A stretch of DNA of 32,000 nucleotides from Methanothermus fervidus DSM 2088 (GCA_000166095.1 CP002278.1:240001-272000), one strand, 5' to 3'; counted from the stretch's first letter, positions 1,879-7,349 are shown. The notes: generated from the sequence alone by a model not told the origin. Numbers and translations: made by a program.

Positions 1879-1904
1879 AATAGTTGGTTTTTAAAGTTAA
1901 ATGT

Positions 1905-2879
1905 ATGGAACTAATTACAATAATTGCAATATTTGTAAGTCTTTATATGGCATTTACAATTTCAGCTAATGATATCGGAAATTCGGTGGGTACGGTAGTT
2001 GGTAGTGGTGCTATCAATATTAAAAGGGCATTGGTTTTAAATTCTATTTTTGCGTTTTTAGGTGCTATATTTTTGAGTAAAGCCGTTACTGAAACCATAG
2101 GAAAAGGAATAATACCTGCTGGCATGCTTGACATTAAAGGTGCTTCTATCATTACCTTTACTACAGGACTTTGGATAACATTTACTTTGTGGAAAAAAAT
2201 TCCAATTTCAGGTTCTGAAGCAATTATTGGGGCAGTAACCGGTTTTGGCGTTGCAAGTATTGGTATAGATAAATTAAATTTACAAACATTGTGGGTAATT
2301 ATGTTAAGTTGGATTGTTTCTCCACTAATTGGCTTGGTTACTGGATACTTGACTTACAGAGCTCTTAACACTGTAATATTTACAAAAACTACAATGAAAA
2401 AAAGAAGTAGAATAGAAAAGATATTTAAATATCTTTTAATATTAACTTCTTGTGCTACAGCTCTAAGTATTGGTGCAATTGATATTTCAATTGCTACTAG
2501 TGTTTTATACATAACATTTGGACAAGCTGGATTAGAAATAAAAATAATTGGCGCCATTATGCTCATAGTAGGTATATTAATAGCAGGTAACAGAGTTAGT
2601 GACACAATTGGTAGACGAATAACAGAATTGGTACCAAGTAGATCATTTTCAGCCCAAATTTCAGCGGCTATTATATATGCACTTTTTGTGTATAATGGGA
2701 TCCCAATATCGCCTACTCAGACACTTGTAGGATCCATCATTGGTGTAGGATTAGCATATGGAGTTTCAAGTGTTAAAATCGACGTTGTTAAAGATGTAAT
2801 ACATATCTGGCTCTTAACAATTCCTTGTTGTTTTACTTTAGCCATGGTTCTTAAGACAATTTCTACTCTTCTAATGTAG
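1905..2879 (+). CDS. inorganic phosphate transporter, PiT/PHO4 family
   Basis: The N-terminal signature is TISANDIGNSVGT, with a repeated second half (SPTQTLVGSIIGVGLAYG) and about 10 hydrophobic segments. The ORF track starts at TTG 1884. ATG 1905 (MELITIIAIF...) is preferred. Confidence 0.85.
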   Translation: MELITIIAIFVSLYMAFTISANDIGNSVGTVVGSGAINIKRALVLNSIFAFLGAIFLSKAVTETIGKGIIPAGMLDIKGASIITFTTGLWITFTLWKKIPISGSEAIIGAVTGFGVASIGIDKLNLQTLWVIMLSWIVSPLIGLVTGYLTYRALNTVIFTKTTMKKRSRIEKIFKYLLILTSCATALSIGAIDISIATSVLYITFGQAGLEIKIIGAIMLIVGILIAGNRVSDTIGRRITELVPSRSFSAQISAAIIYALFVYNGIPISPTQTLVGSIIGVGLAYGVSSVKIDVVKDVIHIWLLTIPCCFTLAMVLKTISTLLM

Positions 2880-3270
2880 ATCTCAGTGCCCTTATTATGT
2901 CACCATCAGATATTATACCTTTAATTTCATCATTCTCTTTTACAACAAGTTGGTTAATTATTTCGTCCTTATCACCATGTTCATACATTTTTTTAACAAC
3001 ATCAGCTAAAGTATCGTTAGGACTTACGCAAACAACATCTTTAACCATTATTTCCTTAACTTTTGTACCTAATTTGTACTTATCTAAGATCAAATTATGG
3101 CCGAGATCTGTTGCTGTTACTATACCTAACAATTTGCCTTTTTTTACTACAGGTAAAGCACTTATTTTATTTTTCATTAATTTTTCAAAAGCAAAAACAA
3201 CGTCTTCTTCGGGATCCACAGTTATAACATTTTTTGTCATCACATCTTTAACCTTTATATTTTCCCACAT
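2863..3270 (-). CDS. CBS domain pair protein
   Basis: Two CBS repeats are visible: VMTKNVITV...ISALPVV...GIVTATDL and IMVKDVVCV...NQLVV...[11 protein letters not shown] is at 3268-3270 with GGTG upstream. It overlaps the 2PGK 3' end by 23 nt and the convergent PiT 3' end by 17 nt. Confidence 0.85.
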
Positions 3271-4162
3271 CTTTATGCACCAAATCTTCTGTTAAGGACT
3301 TGACAATCGAGTCAATAGTTGTAACTACATCAATATTTTCAATTATTGGGATATTATGTTTTCTTGCTTGCATTTCAATATAATCATGTATGCGTCTTAT
3401 AGCCCAGAAGTATTTTAAATATCTCTCTAAAGGTCTTCTTGCCCATTTTTGTCTGCAACGAGAATAAAATCTGCTTCTATGCATTTTTTCATCAGGAACT
3501 GTCAATACAAACATCGCTACATTATTTTTATTAATTAGTTCTTCCCTTATAAATCCAGGAACAAGGTGGGCACCTTCTATGACTATACTTATACCTTCGG
3601 TAAGTGCTCTTTCAATTACAGCTTCAATGCCGACGGTCACCACGTTTACATGGTCTCTAAAGCCAACTAAAACTTCATCAAACTCTACAGGTGCAGGTGT
3701 CCTTAAAGATTTATAAGCTGTAAAAGTAGATTCATGAAGAGAAGGTATTAATTCTTTAGATATCATCTTTCTCATGACTTCTCGTATCATGTCGGTGCTG
3801 ATCATGTTTCTTATTCCTAATCTATTTGCAACTTCGAATGCTATTGATGATGTTCCAACACCAGAAGCTCCTGCAATCAATAAAATTAAAGGTTCCTTAT
3901 ATTCTCTTATTTTTCTCCATCTTATATATTTTTCAGCTATTTTTTCATCTTTTTCCTTTAATTTATTGTATACAATTTTTACTAATTCATCAATAGTTAC
4001 AATTTTCTTTTTTTCTTTTTTAAGATAAGACTCTACTTCTGCTGCAAGGAGGTAAGCATCTGTAGGATCCATCCCTGATCTCGTCAGTGATCTAGCCAAT
4101 ACACCCTTTGAAAATGGTTCTCTGTATTTTTTTCCAGCTACTTTTCCTTCCACTAGAATCAT
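3248..4162 (-). CDS. pgk2: 2-phosphoglycerate kinase (ATP-cone plus P-loop kinase)
   Basis: The N-terminal ATP-cone-like segment is [34 protein letters not shown]. The Walker A motif is [23 protein letters not shown] lies 6 nt before ATG 4160-4162. The family is known from methanogens that make cyclic 2,3-diphosphoglycerate. Confidence 0.8.
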
Positions 4163-4168
4163 TATTTA

Positions 4169-4807
4169 TCACCTAATTTTGATCCATTTACAGTTTACTT
4201 CTCCATCTAAATCTATAACTGCAACCTTGCCTTCGAAAGCAGGGCCTGTGTTGATTATTGTTGTGTTTCCTAGTTGGTCAATACCTCTAGCTTCATGTAT
4301 ATGAGCACATATATTAACTTTAGGTTGGTACTCTTCTATTATTTTTCTTATAGATTTACTACCAACGTTATCACCACTTTGTATTTGATCAACTTTTGTG
4401 TTGTAAGGAGGCGCATGTGTAACAAGAATTGTCGTATCCTTTGAAATAATATTTTTTAAGCTATTGTATATTTCCTTCTCTTGAAATTCAAAAGGCGTGT
4501 CAAAAGGCGTTGGATTTGATCCTCCAAATCCACATATTTTTATACCTTTAATTTCTATAGCGTTGTTGTGAATATTGATTGTACCAGACTTTTCTATGAT
4601 ATCCACAGTTTCTGGTAAGTCACAGTTACCTGGCAATGCTAGCACAGGAACATTGTAACTTGTTAACTTGTTTAATATTTTTTCTGCTAACTCTACTGGT
4701 CCAAAATCAGTTATGTCTCCAGAAACTATTATGAGATCTATTTCTTCATTTAAATTATTTAATTCTAATAATTTTCCGTGAAGGTCACTAATTCCAAGAA
4801 TTTTCAT
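4169..4807 (-). CDS. metallophosphoesterase (calcineurin-like, YfcE/MJ0936 type)
   Basis: The motifs are ISDLHG, SGDITDFG, GNCD, VTHAPP and AHIHEARG in canonical order. GGGGA SD sits before ATG 4805-4807. Confidence 0.8.
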   Translation of the reverse strand: MKILGISDLHGKLLELNNLNEEIDLIIVSGDITDFGPVELAEKILNKLTSYNVPVLALPGNCDLPETVDIIEKSGTINIHNNAIEIKGIKICGFGGSNPTPFDTPFEFQEKEIYNSLKNIISKDTTILVTHAPPYNTKVDQIQSGDNVGSKSIRKIIEEYQPKVNICAHIHEARGIDQLGNTTIINTGPAFEGKVAVIDLDGEVNCKWIKIR

Positions 4808-4809
4808 AT

Positions 4810-5337
4810 TTATTCCCCAAAGAATGTTGCTATTTCTTTTAAACTTCTTTTAATATCTTCAGCTTCACCATATAAAACAATTATATTATCTTCTTCAAAT
4901 TCTATTATCAAACCATGGTATTCCGCAATTTCCTGTATTCTATCTTCTGATATTGCCGTGTTTAAATTTACCCTTGTAACCATCATGTCCCTAGGAGCCC
5001 CTGTTATAAATCTAGATTTAATATTAGGAGGTCTATACACCTTTTCGCCTCTTATGACTTTTTTAAATTCCTCTTTCCACTTATTGCGATATTCTTTACT
5101 TATGTCCCCTGCAAAATCTAATAAAACTTCTTGTAGATAATTTAAAGATTCATTTATATTCTTTAATTCCTTAACAATTTTTGGATCGTTAGGACTAGAT
5201 TTATATAGATTAATTAGAAATTTTGTATCTCTCATCTCCTTATTTATGGATTTTGGAAGATCTTTACCTCTTTTTTTTAAATCTGCATGTAATTTAAGAA
5301 TTGTGAACCATATTTGTTCTAATATATCAGCTTTCAT
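4810..5337 (-). CDS. conserved hypothetical protein, 175 aa (possibly the archaeal DUF2096 family, unverified)
   Basis: The ORF is clean with coding-like composition. GGAAGGA SD precedes ATG 5335-5337, which overlaps the upstream stop (ATGA). It ends 2 nt before the phosphoesterase start. Confidence 0.6.
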   Translation of the reverse strand: MKADILEQIWFTILKLHADLKKRGKDLPKSINKEMRDTKFLINLYKSSPNDPKIVKELKNINESLNYLQEVLLDFAGDISKEYRNKWKEEFKKVIRGEKVYRPPNIKSRFITGAPRDMMVTRVNLNTAISEDRIQEIAEYHGLIIEFEEDNIIVLYGEAEDIKRSLKEIATFFGE

Positions 5338-5603
5338 AGATGTCCTTCCAAAATATTTGATGAAATGTGATTCAATTTTGCACCTATTTCTTTTAACTCT
5401 TCTTTAATTTCATCTATATTGTTGTAAGATTCCAAAAACAAAACATGATAACATTTGGTGCCTGCAATATTGACTATAGCAATTTTCTCATTTTTTTTAA
5501 TTTTATTCTTTTTCTCTAAAGCTGCTTTTAACTCTACAAATTTTATATATTCATCAGGTATTTCATCATATTTAAATACTCCCAGTAAGGTGGCTGTAAA
5601 CAT
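5334..5603 (-). CDS. hypothetical small protein, 89 aa
   Basis: GGGGGA SD precedes ATG 5601-5603. It is translationally coupled to the next gene. I recognise no motif. Confidence 0.5.
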   Translation of the reverse strand: MFTATLLGVFKYDEIPDEYIKFVELKAALEKKNKIKKNEKIAIVNIAGTKCYHVLFLESYNNIDEIKEELKEIGAKLNHISSNILEGHL

Positions 5604-5744
5604 TTAATTTCCCCCAAAACATTTTTTTAATATATTTTTAAATATATCTTTTTTTTAAACAAAATTTTATGTTTCGAAAATTTTTTAGTGTAGGAATAAT
5701 TTACATAATATTTTAAAAGGAAAAATAATTGAGGGTTTAAAAAT

Positions 5745-6200
5745 ATGAAAATATTTAGCAAGGCATTTAAAAATGGTGAGAAAATCCCTAAAAAATATAC
5801 TTGTGATGGACAGGACATTTCACCACCTATCAAATGGGAAGATATACCAGAAAACACTAAAACTTTGGTTTTAATTTGTGAAGATCCAGATGCTCCAGGA
5901 AAAACTTGGGTACATTGGGTATTATTTAATATACCTCCTGAAATTGAAGAACTTCCAGAAGGCGTTGAAAATAAGGAAAAACTTGAAAATGGAGCTATAC
6001 ATGGAGTAAATGATTGGGGAAGACTTGGATATGGAGGTCCTTGCCCACCATCAGGTACACATCGATATTACTTTAGATTATATGCATTAGATACTGAACT
6101 CAAATTAGAACCAGGTGCAAAAAAAGAAGAAGTAGTAGAAGCCATGAAAGATCATATAATTGATCAGGCAGAGCTAATGGGAACCTATTCTAGGGAATAA
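5745..6200 (+). CDS. YbhB/YbcL (PEBP/Raf-kinase-inhibitor-like) family protein
   Basis: The family signature is CEDPDAPGKTWVHWVLFNIP...GYGGPCPPSGTHRYYFRLYALD. GAGGG lies upstream of the ATG. Confidence 0.85.
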   Translation: MKIFSKAFKNGEKIPKKYTCDGQDISPPIKWEDIPENTKTLVLICEDPDAPGKTWVHWVLFNIPPEIEELPEGVENKEKLENGAIHGVNDWGRLGYGGPCPPSGTHRYYFRLYALDTELKLEPGAKKEEVVEAMKDHIIDQAELMGTYSRE

Positions 6201-6212
6201 TTTTAGTATTAT

Positions 6213-7349
6213 TTAAAATACATCATCAACAAACTTCTCTAGTGAATGTTTTTTTGTAAATTCTTTTTTCTTTTCTAAACCTCTTTTTGGTTTTTCTTCA
6301 CTAAACATGTATGGAGACTTCACACCAGACACTATAATAGTAGTTCTTATTGTATTCTGTAATTCTTCCTCAATTTGTACGCCCCATATTATATTAGCCT
6401 CTGGATCTAATTCATCTGCTACTACTTGTACAATCCTTTCAGCTTCTTGTAATGATAAATCTGAGCTACCAGTAATATTAATTAATGCTCCTTTAGCGTT
6501 TGATATATCTAAATCAAGTAATGGACTGTTTAATGCTTCATGAACAGATTCTAATGCTTTATCTTCACCAGATTCAGACTCACCCATTCCAATCATTGCC
6601 ATTCCAGAACCTTGCATAACACTTTTTATATCAGCAAAATCTAAACTTATGAGACCTGGCTTAGTTATTAGTTCAGTTATTCCTTTTACAGCTCTACTTA
6701 ATATTTCATCAGCTACCATAAAGGCTTTGTTAATTGGTAAATTAGGTGCTACTTCCAATAATTTGTCGTTTGGAACCACAATAACAGTGTCAGCAGAATT
6801 TCTTAATTTTTTAAGACCTTCTTCGGCATTTTTTCTCCTGATAACTCCTTCTGCACTAAATGGCAATGTCACTACAGCAATTGTCAATGCTCCACATTTC
6901 TTTGCTATTTTGGATATTACGGGAGCTGAACCTGTTCCAGTTCCTCCACCTAACCCACAAGTCACAAATACCATATCTGCATTTTCAAGTTCTCTTGCTA
7001 TTTCATCTTCACTTTCTTCTGCACATTCTTCACCTAGTTCAGGAATTCCACCAGTTCCTAAACCTCTACAAAGATTTTTACCAATTAAAATTTTCTTGTC
7101 AGCGACACTATAATATAGATCTTGGGCATCAGTGTTAACAGCAATGGTTTTTGCACCTTCAATACCTATTTTTGTTAGTCTGGAAACAGTATTATTTCCA
7201 GCTCCACCTGTACCAACAACATATATCCTTGATCTACTCTCTTCCATTATTTTTTTAAGTTCCTCATCTATAGAATTTTCACTTCTGATGTTAGGCTTCC
7301 CAATATCTTCTTTTTTTGCATTTTTTAATGCATCTTCAATAAGTTTCAC
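6213..7349 (-). CDS. ftsZ: cell division GTPase FtsZ
   Basis: Motifs seen are [12 protein letters not shown] and the tubulin signature [13 protein letters not shown], plus NTDAQDL. There is an acidic/hydrophobic C-terminal peptide, LEKFVDDVF. The start is GTG 7347-7349, preceded by GAGGGAGA. Confidence 0.95.

Follow-up and report, generated by a model that had tools for sequence, protein, structure and literature searches.

A compact five-gene block around 2-phosphoglycerate kinase in Methanothermus fervidus is probably the tail of an ancestral hdrCB string and not a dedicated cyclic 2,3-diphosphoglycerate module

Do the neighbours of a kinase in a tightly packed gene block belong to the pathway of that kinase? 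The question is raised by a locus of Methanothermus fervidus in which the gene for 2-phosphoglycerate kinase (2PGK), an enzyme on the route to cyclic 2,3-diphosphoglycerate (cDPG), is packed together with the genes for a metallophosphoesterase (MPE), a CBS-pair protein and two DUF proteins. We analysed a window of 32,000 nucleotides around it (240,001-272,000 of the single 1,243,342-bp contig; 31.6% G+C), and window positions are used throughout. The original prediction, made from the DNA of this window, took the block for an operon of cDPG turnover and regulation, with MPE as the possible catabolic enzyme and the CBS protein as the possible regulator. Comparison across the class Methanobacteria indicates that the block is probably not a dedicated cDPG turnover module. 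We favour, with more confidence than doubt, the reading that it is the compacted tail of an ancestral string headed by hdrCB (the genes for subunits C and B of the CoB-CoM heterodisulfide reductase, Hdr), and that it consists of separable units of which only 2PGK is tied to cDPG. The features concerned are:

5604-5744, divergent intergenic region, likely promoter of the block (TATA-like stretch at about 5629-5650, GGGGG at 5611-5615)
5334-5603, minus strand, DUF749 gene, 89 aa (open reading frame read, PF05370)
4810-5337, minus strand, DUF2096 gene, 175 aa (PF23100 and PF09869)
4169-4807, minus strand, MPE gene, 212 aa (PF00149)
3248-4162, minus strand, 2PGK gene, 304 aa (NF003259; ATP-cone and P-loop kinase)
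2863-3270, minus strand, stand-alone CBS-pair gene, 135 aa (PF00571 twice)
1884-2879, plus strand, PiT-family anion permease gene, 331 aa (PHO4, PF01384)

Re-reading of the window reproduced the predicted minus-strand order at 2863-5603 with all coordinates matching exactly. The same holds for the four junctions, namely a 4-nt ATGA overlap (5334-5337), gaps of 2 nt (4808-4809) and 6 nt (4163-4168) and a 23-nt overlap (3248-3270), and for the 17-nt overlap of the CBS gene with the convergent PiT gene. The claim of a Shine-Dalgarno sequence before each start stood only in part: a purine run precedes all five, but the sole strong match is AGGTGAT before 2PGK, with GGGGG before DUF749, a broken GGAAGGA before DUF2096, GGGGA before MPE and GGTG before CBS. 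The CBS start at 3270 is backed by homologues, all of which open M-L/W-E-x-x-K-V-K-D-V-M-T. The five genes share one strand and are joined by overlaps or by gaps of at most 6 nt. Between 5750 and 2701 the coding strand contains no terminator-like run of six or more T, and an AT-rich, TATA-like stretch that may act as promoter lies 25-45 nt upstream of the DUF749 start. Given these tight junctions, the lack of a T6 run and the upstream TATA-like stretch, one transcript is the natural reading in M. fervidus. Judged by this layout, the predicted five-gene operon is very probably one compact transcription unit here, with its promoter very probably in the AT-rich region ahead of DUF749.

Does the same unit exist elsewhere? 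A first sample took in some 9 kb to either side of 2PGK in 40 genomes of many genera; DUF749-DUF2096-MPE-2PGK-CBS stood in order on one strand in 35 of these 40 loci from other genera. The second sample comprised 80 named Methanobacteria loci from a contig scan for DUF749; 56 were long enough to classify, and 47 of these carry all five genes in order. That MPE and CBS genes accompany pgk2 in further cDPG accumulators, as the prediction required, was confirmed in Methanothermobacter, with the five genes in order in loci L008, L009 and L037 (L008 and L037 are assigned to Methanothermobacter marburgensis and strain CaT2). Of the further M. fervidus neighbours used as queries, among them FtsZ, PEBP and DUF364, PiT alone recurs in the 40 loci, so the background synteny at this distance is low.

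The spacers, measured between open reading frames in 37-44 loci per junction, divide the block. Only two junctions are consistently tight: that between DUF749 and DUF2096 (median -4 nt, overlapping in 39 of 44 loci) and that between 2PGK and CBS, which overlap in 38 of 38 loci by 4-41 nt. The DUF2096/MPE spacer has a median of 116 nt (2 nt in M. fervidus), and the MPE/2PGK spacer a median of 175 nt and a minimum of 52 nt, with none at or below 50 nt outside M. fervidus (6 nt). With gaps of 2 and 6 nt, M. fervidus stands at the far end of the spacer distribution, as is expected for a compact 1.24-Mb genome. Many MPE/2PGK spacers hold TATA-like boxes 35-80 nt before a conserved GAGGTGA, and in 10 of 49 loci this junction contains an insert of more than 1 kb. 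The inserted genes are unrelated to the block and include MFS transporters, a CDF cation exporter, an adhesin-like giant and a BPL_N-like gene. The trio DUF749-DUF2096-MPE lies apart from 2PGK in Methanosphaera, in genome G101 (where it is on another contig) and in locus L119, and termite Methanovirga loci have no MPE, 2PGK or CBS after the DUF pair. MFS genes between MPE and 2PGK were observed in a Methanobrevibacter acididurans-like genome (L030:10166-16024) and in L029, L034, L035 and L078; they occur in several termite-gut or related genera, with four in tandem in one genome.

What precedes the block in relatives is not visible from the window alone, in which hdrCB is absent. HdrC and HdrB proteins were searched in 130 loci, and in 108 of the 112 with enough upstream sequence the hdrC-hdrB pair immediately precedes DUF749, in the same orientation, at a median gap of 321 nt. 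Both proteins score above cut-off (HdrB 527-542 bits on TIGR03288, HdrC 229-255 bits on TIGR03290); the Methanosphaera genes directly upstream of DUF749 are likewise those of HdrC (255 bits) and HdrB (529 bits). The link extends over Methanothermobacter, Methanobacterium, Methanobrevibacter, Methanosphaera and most Methanovirga loci. In M. thermautotrophicus, hdrCB are presumably MTH1878 and MTH1879, which fits MTH1880, a homologue of the DUF749 protein, as the next gene. These neighbourhoods suggest that a longer conserved string, headed by hdrCB, ends in the block and, since hdrCB is upstream in so many loci, that the ancestral string ran hdrC-hdrB / DUF749-DUF2096 / MPE / 2PGK-CBS. No paper describing a class-wide string with an hdrCB head was found, and it is apparently undescribed.

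How firmly is 2PGK itself placed? The protein scores 429.4 bits on NF003259 (PRK04220; cut-off 343), with an N-terminal ATP-cone (PF03477, residues 11-87, 4.5e-13), and the Walker A motif GASGVGTS can be read in the translation. As the original prediction stated, this is the known first step towards cDPG, yielding 2,3-diphosphoglycerate (2,3-DPG), the substrate of cDPG synthetase (cDPGS). The window kinase is the enzyme whose purification and cloning date from the 1990s: PMC10690619 attributes the M. fervidus enzyme and gene to Lehmacher et al. 1990 and Lehmacher & Hensel 1994, with ATP-dependent conversion of 2-phosphoglycerate to 2,3-DPG shown for this enzyme in the same work. The M. fervidus cDPGS is identical to PDB entry 8ORK, and its gene is named Mfer_0077 in PMC12136491. 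A link of this gene, cpgS, to the block was rejected, as it lies 165 kb away; in the complete genomes checked the 2PGK and cDPGS genes are never adjacent.

We searched 201 genomes from 29 genera, all of the class Methanobacteria, and detected 2PGK in 197 and cDPGS in 185 of them, in all 29 genera, mesophiles included. cDPGS has no Pfam or NCBIfam accession, and named control genomes thus fall outside the cDPGS comparison. The homologues of 2PGK, and likewise those of DUF2096, that a protein search listed are from Methanobacteria only. This spread fits the detection of cDPG by 31P nuclear magnetic resonance (NMR) in Methanobrevibacter smithii (PMC1224877) and the description of 2PGK as a signature of all Class I methanogens (PMC2686161). 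M. fervidus also carries a second 2PGK-like P-loop kinase without ATP-cone (G000:C1:901458-902084, L002; a 328-codon open frame), which scores 205 bits on NF003259, below cut-off. Most Methanobacteria carry such a paralogue, and none was found at E <= 1e-10 in the 2PGK-less genomes G201-G203. Outside the window, on the minus strand (G000:C1:77414-79372, corresponding to L005:7435-9373), the cDPGS gene shares 23 nt with the 192-aa gene that follows it, a PF05618 member ('putative ATP-dependent zinc protease'), which adjoins cpgS in 5 of the 12 other genomes inspected. In 6 of those 12, and in M. fervidus too, a thermosome gene is found no more than about 2 kb from cpgS.

If the neighbours served cDPG, what happens to them where the pathway is gone? 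Neither 2PGK nor cDPGS was found in six Methanobrevibacter genomes (G090, G108, G118, G201, G202 and G203). Among the 12 genomes of genus g14, nine gave no cDPGS match and three no 2PGK match; the five cDPGS-less genomes examined all keep the DUF749-DUF2096-MPE trio. The G090 locus (L058) reads CBS-MPE-DUF2096-DUF749 with 2PGK cleanly gone. In three further rumen or gut Methanobrevibacter loci (L098, L125, L126) the CBS gene also stands directly after the MPE gene, and whole-genome searches of their source genomes found no 2PGK and no cDPGS. G108 and G118, which lack both pathway genes, keep the trio or DUF749, together with a CBS orthologue at 59% identity. The remaining block reading frames in pathway-less genomes are intact, and the catalytic residues of MPE are unchanged in L057 and L058. 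Among 2PGK-less genomes the pairwise ratio of non-synonymous to synonymous substitution rates (dN/dS) is 0.03-0.18 where computable, with dS of 0.4 to >1 for most pairs. In an approximate tree of three concatenated proteins, 2PGK-less genomes occupy at least four separate places among 2PGK-bearing ones, which points to at least four separate losses of 2PGK. Methanosphaera has both 2PGK and cDPGS, with 2PGK standing alone and the trio elsewhere; no CBS orthologue was found there, the best match being a 28-36% paralogue.

MPE, the CBS protein and the two DUF proteins thus appear independent of cDPG, because they are kept where the pathway is gone, and the pathway appears independent of the CBS protein, because Methanosphaera has the one without an orthologue of the other. 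The proposed role of the CBS protein as regulator of 2PGK or cDPG is accordingly not borne out: it is retained where 2PGK is lost and absent where both pathway genes are present. In rumen-type Methanobrevibacter the pathway looks to have decayed in steps, with cDPGS lost first and then 2PGK, an order that fits cDPG synthesis as the main job of 2PGK. The genomes concerned are G041, G055, G090, G108, G112, G118, G153, G187 and G190 of genus g14, and the loci are L056-L059, L098, L125 and L126. In 2PGK proteins that remain although cDPGS has gone, MILVRRELKGKV stands in place of the conserved N-terminal MIMVEGEVSGKK.

Could MPE nonetheless be the cDPG hydrolase? The protein belongs to the calcineurin-like superfamily (PF00149, 77.3 bits, cut-off 21.5; PF14582, Metallophos_3, 58.3 bits, cut-off 28.2). 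The label 'YfcE/MJ0936-type' is too specific, with 32.1 bits on TIGR00040 falling under the cut-off of 56.25; a profile of 17 orthologues matches YfcE (1SU1) over the first 68 residues only (6.7e-6), and the closest solved relative by the same profile is aq_1956 (PDB 2YVT, 3.6e-13). The metal motifs are invariant in the 17 orthologues (D8, H10, GD31, GNCD60-63 with N61, H131, and CxHxHE167-172 with H169 and H171), as is a family-specific GGSNPTPFxTPxE motif. The highest 19-residue Kyte-Doolittle mean of MPE is 1.09, against 2.32 for PiT, and indicates no membrane segment. MPE would thus be a soluble di-metal phosphoesterase of the aq_1956 / Metallophos_3 kind. The sole cDPG hydrolase described, from M. 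thermautotrophicus, is a membrane-bound enzyme that K+ and inorganic phosphate inhibit, and the cDPGS of M. fervidus itself is reversible (PMC1224877). By hydropathy MPE shows no sign of such membrane association, although peripheral binding would still be possible. Nor does MPE behave as dispensable without the pathway, being intact and under purifying selection in genomes that lack 2PGK and cDPGS. The prediction was right that the hydrolase gene is unassigned, in that our literature search found no paper making the assignment. Its proposal that MPE could be the cDPG catabolic enzyme is not supported, given the retention of MPE in pathway-less genomes, the lack of a membrane segment and the spacer to 2PGK elsewhere.

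In four Methanosphaera-type genomes (L061:6621-8392, L062, L063 and L064) the MPE gene is followed, some 10 nt on, by genes for a PaaK-like AMP-forming ligase (AMP-binding_C_2) and an ACT-pair protein, in the place of 2PGK-CBS; the arrangement is common to all four.

The CBS protein consists of two tandem CBS domains (PF00571, 112.9 bits, 8.7e-33), that is, a Bateman pair. DUF749 is a clear member of PF05370 (130.5 bits, 2.4e-38), and a profile of 16 orthologues matches PDB entries 1IQO/1IQS (MTH1880) at 1.6e-41, so that the protein appears to be a small alpha+beta homologue of MTH1880, reported from its NMR structure as a Ca-binding protein of novel fold (PMC4713090). A search of a protein atlas with DUF749 gave scores at noise level. 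DUF2096 contains both PF23100 (116.3 bits, 8e-34) and PF09869 (92.7 bits, 1e-26). Its AlphaFold model (mean predicted local distance difference test score, pLDDT, 83) shows five helices followed by beta-alpha-beta-beta-alpha, and a fold search with it returned weak matches to KH domains; the model suggests an N-terminal helical bundle and a C-terminal KH-like domain. The family extends to 236 clusters at 50% identity in a profile search, including Asgard archaea, Bathyarchaeia and Hydrothermarchaeales; in the contexts read there, no DUF749, MPE or 2PGK adjoins DUF2096. The Methanocaldococcus jannaschii control genome likewise has matches to both DUF749 and DUF2096. Longer, fused DUF2096 proteins offered no informative partner domain and are probably gene-call artefacts. 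Prediction of a DUF2096-DUF749 complex gave a score of 0.00 against a mark of 0.32 and is counted neither way. A literature search found no papers mentioning DUF749, DUF2096 or MTH1877-1883.

Two further observations concern these families. In some uncultured archaea (L068:7001-9901 and contigs of P0146 and P0337) a very large gene lies about 120-145 nt downstream of DUF2096; in L068 it encodes SMC (TIGR02169, 414 bits) and is cut by the contig end. A second, more divergent DUF749 copy occurs away from hdrCB in G108:C17:175653-175913 (L060), G015:C119 and G032:C7, and that of L060 has no adjoining DUF2096.

We propose that the string comprised units ancestral to the class Methanobacteria, with differing fates. 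One would be the DUF749-DUF2096 pair, an obligate pair with a 4-nt overlap that travels with hdrCB almost everywhere bar M. fervidus; another MPE, a third element with its own spacers; and the last 2PGK with the CBS gene, always overlapping where they occur together. In M. fervidus the five genes would be co-transcribed owing to genome compaction. Of the five, 2PGK alone would serve cDPG, supplying 2,3-DPG to the cDPGS encoded 165 kb off. The DUF pair may act with heterodisulfide reductase, for instance in the assembly, regulation or docking of HdrBC; the CBS protein may be a nucleotide-sensing partner made with 2PGK, possibly modulating it and having at least one further role; and the substrate of MPE would be a phosphoester not peculiar to the cDPG cycle.

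Several points weigh against this proposal. The class-wide adjacency of MPE and 2PGK is a signal that usually marks a functional link, and a phosphatase of broad specificity, with 2,3-DPG or cDPG among its substrates, would outlast the pathway. All six genomes without the pathway come from one rumen Methanobrevibacter group and are mostly metagenome-assembled; some losses may be recent, so that selection after loss is shown only in part. Spacing and AT-rich boxes are the basis for both the single unit here and the separate promoters assumed elsewhere, and the Hdr link too is one of gene neighbourhood only. M. fervidus itself breaks that link, its only hdrCB pair lying at 718 kb, 473 kb off, and being followed by a convergent gene. 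HdrA is nearby in 1 of the 8 DUF2096 contexts read outside the class; in this one (L071), HdrA2 and FlpD (MvhD-like) genes lie within about 1-3 kb of DUF2096 on the opposite strand.

How do the alternatives compare? A cDPG turnover and regulation module, in which cDPG is hydrolysed, or 2,3-DPG dephosphorylated, by MPE, 2PGK is under the control of an adenine-nucleotide-sensing CBS protein, and the DUF proteins assist, would account for the linkage of the five genes in the accumulators M. fervidus and Methanothermobacter and across a class in which cDPGS is nearly universal. It could also draw on the frequent nearness of a PiT permease, on the fact that some metallophosphoesterases, such as LpxH and ApaH, cleave phosphoanhydride bonds, and on the lack of any paper found that names the hydrolase gene. 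We nevertheless consider it improbable. The supposed accessory genes persist under purifying selection (dN/dS 0.03-0.18) in the six genomes without 2PGK and cDPGS, with 2PGK lost at least four times, and the trio likewise persists in the five g14 genomes examined among the nine in which cDPGS was not found. The CBS gene is missing from pathway-bearing Methanosphaera, and the units separate there, in G101 and in L119, while Methanovirga keeps the DUF pair without MPE, 2PGK or CBS. DUF749 and DUF2096 match in M. jannaschii, and DUF2096 reaches Asgard archaea and Bathyarchaeia. At least 52 nt, and often unrelated genes, part MPE from 2PGK outside M. fervidus. To this are added the membrane-bound nature of the known hydrolase and the reversibility of the M. 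fervidus cDPGS (PMC1224877), set against an MPE without a membrane segment.

A narrower version confines the functional unit to 2PGK and a CBS protein regulating it, with the upstream genes as unrelated passengers. The two genes overlap in every one of the 38 loci and stay together even when inserts split both from MPE, and CBS pairs are known nucleotide sensors. However, the CBS orthologue outlasts at least four separate deletions of 2PGK, Methanosphaera has lost it while keeping 2PGK and cDPGS, and 2PGK already has a sensor domain of its own in the ATP-cone. Such a self-contained unit is conceivable but doubtful; a regulatory pairing of the two proteins, taken by itself, would be compatible with the hdrCB-string picture and is similarly tentative. 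Somewhat less likely still is frozen synteny, that is, an inherited order with no functional tie between units and with the M. fervidus packing due to streamlining of its 1.24-Mb genome. This is favoured by the independent parting of units in several lineages without gene loss, by spacers big enough for separate promoters everywhere but in M. fervidus, and by unrelated genes inserted at junctions. It sits poorly with the survival of the string in 47 of 56 classifiable loci and of the hdrB-DUF749 link in 108 of 112, given that the other neighbours queried, bar PiT, are not kept near 2PGK in the 40 loci. Finally, DUF749 and DUF2096, possibly with MPE, might be undescribed accessory factors of HdrBC (assembly, regulation or docking), in which case the placement of 2PGK-CBS would couple cDPG synthesis to energy state. 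We rate this extension as unlikely, and we know of no biochemical link of DUF749, DUF2096 or MPE to Hdr.

The compacted hdrCB tail remains the reading we prefer, and its consequences are of several kinds. For cDPG biology, an attractive candidate for the missing hydrolase is set aside as probably wrong, and the pathway appears to have been lost repeatedly in rumen Methanobrevibacter. For methanogen biology, two orphan families, one with a solved structure, are tied to hdrCB, which offers a testable lead for both. For annotation practice, genes that look tightly 'translationally coupled' in a small, streamlined genome (1.24 Mb) may be separable units brought together by compaction, and such packing is not proof of a shared pathway. 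2PGK was known already, and the remaining families had been catalogued as orphans; what is gained is a useful correction and a new lead of moderate weight, and the system itself is not of a new kind.

The surroundings of the block differ in their conservation. PiT matches PHO4 (PF01384, 242 bits, 8e-72), with the NCBIfam matches to the CysP sulfate permease and PitA both below cut-off. A convergent PiT gene lies 0.1-6 kb from the CBS gene in about half of the loci (Methanothermobacter and Methanobacterium, not Methanobrevibacter). The PiT overlap as a sign of a phosphate module was rejected on this account, with the link in only about half of the loci and none in Methanobrevibacter. Two co-oriented genes at 429-1870, encoding a 245-aa protein (no family tested) and a 235-aa DUF364 protein ('putative heavy-metal chelation'), lead into PiT with a 4-nt overlap and a 13-nt gap and may form with it a transport operon converging on the CBS gene. 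On the other side, where hdrCB sits in relatives, a divergent PEBP/YbhB-type gene (5745-6200, plus strand) is followed by ftsZ (6213-7349, minus strand); neither was found near the block in the other sampled genomes.

Set beside known systems, the 2PGK of the window belongs with the cDPG biosynthesis genes of M. fervidus, whereas its four neighbours outlive the pathway in six genomes. For the cDPG hydrolase activity of M. thermautotrophicus, a metal-dependent phosphohydrolase beside 2PGK is a chemically reasonable candidate, but that activity is membrane-bound and inhibited by K+ and phosphate, whereas MPE is soluble by hydropathy and kept in genomes without cDPGS. Membrane-bound cDPG hydrolase activity was reportedly the subject of van Alebeek et al. 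1994 and Sastry et al. 1992. With aq_1956 / Metallophos_3, YfcE and MJ0936, MPE shares the calcineurin-like di-metal fold and its motifs, including GNCD; it differs from YfcE in scoring below the family cut-off and in having its own invariant GGSNPTPFxTPxE, and aq_1956 (2YVT) is itself uncharacterised and so gives MPE no substrate. The hdrCB operon lies upstream of the DUF pair on the same strand in nearly all loci of the class, in contrast to M. fervidus, where it stands alone. The closest general parallel is the uber-operon, said to have been described by Lathe et al. in 2000 as a conserved neighbourhood of separable transcription units. As there, the units of the hdrCB string stay together over long evolutionary distances while their junctions break and re-form; the difference is that the uber-operon is a concept of pattern, not of mechanism, and that a common higher-order function of the hdrCB string is putative.

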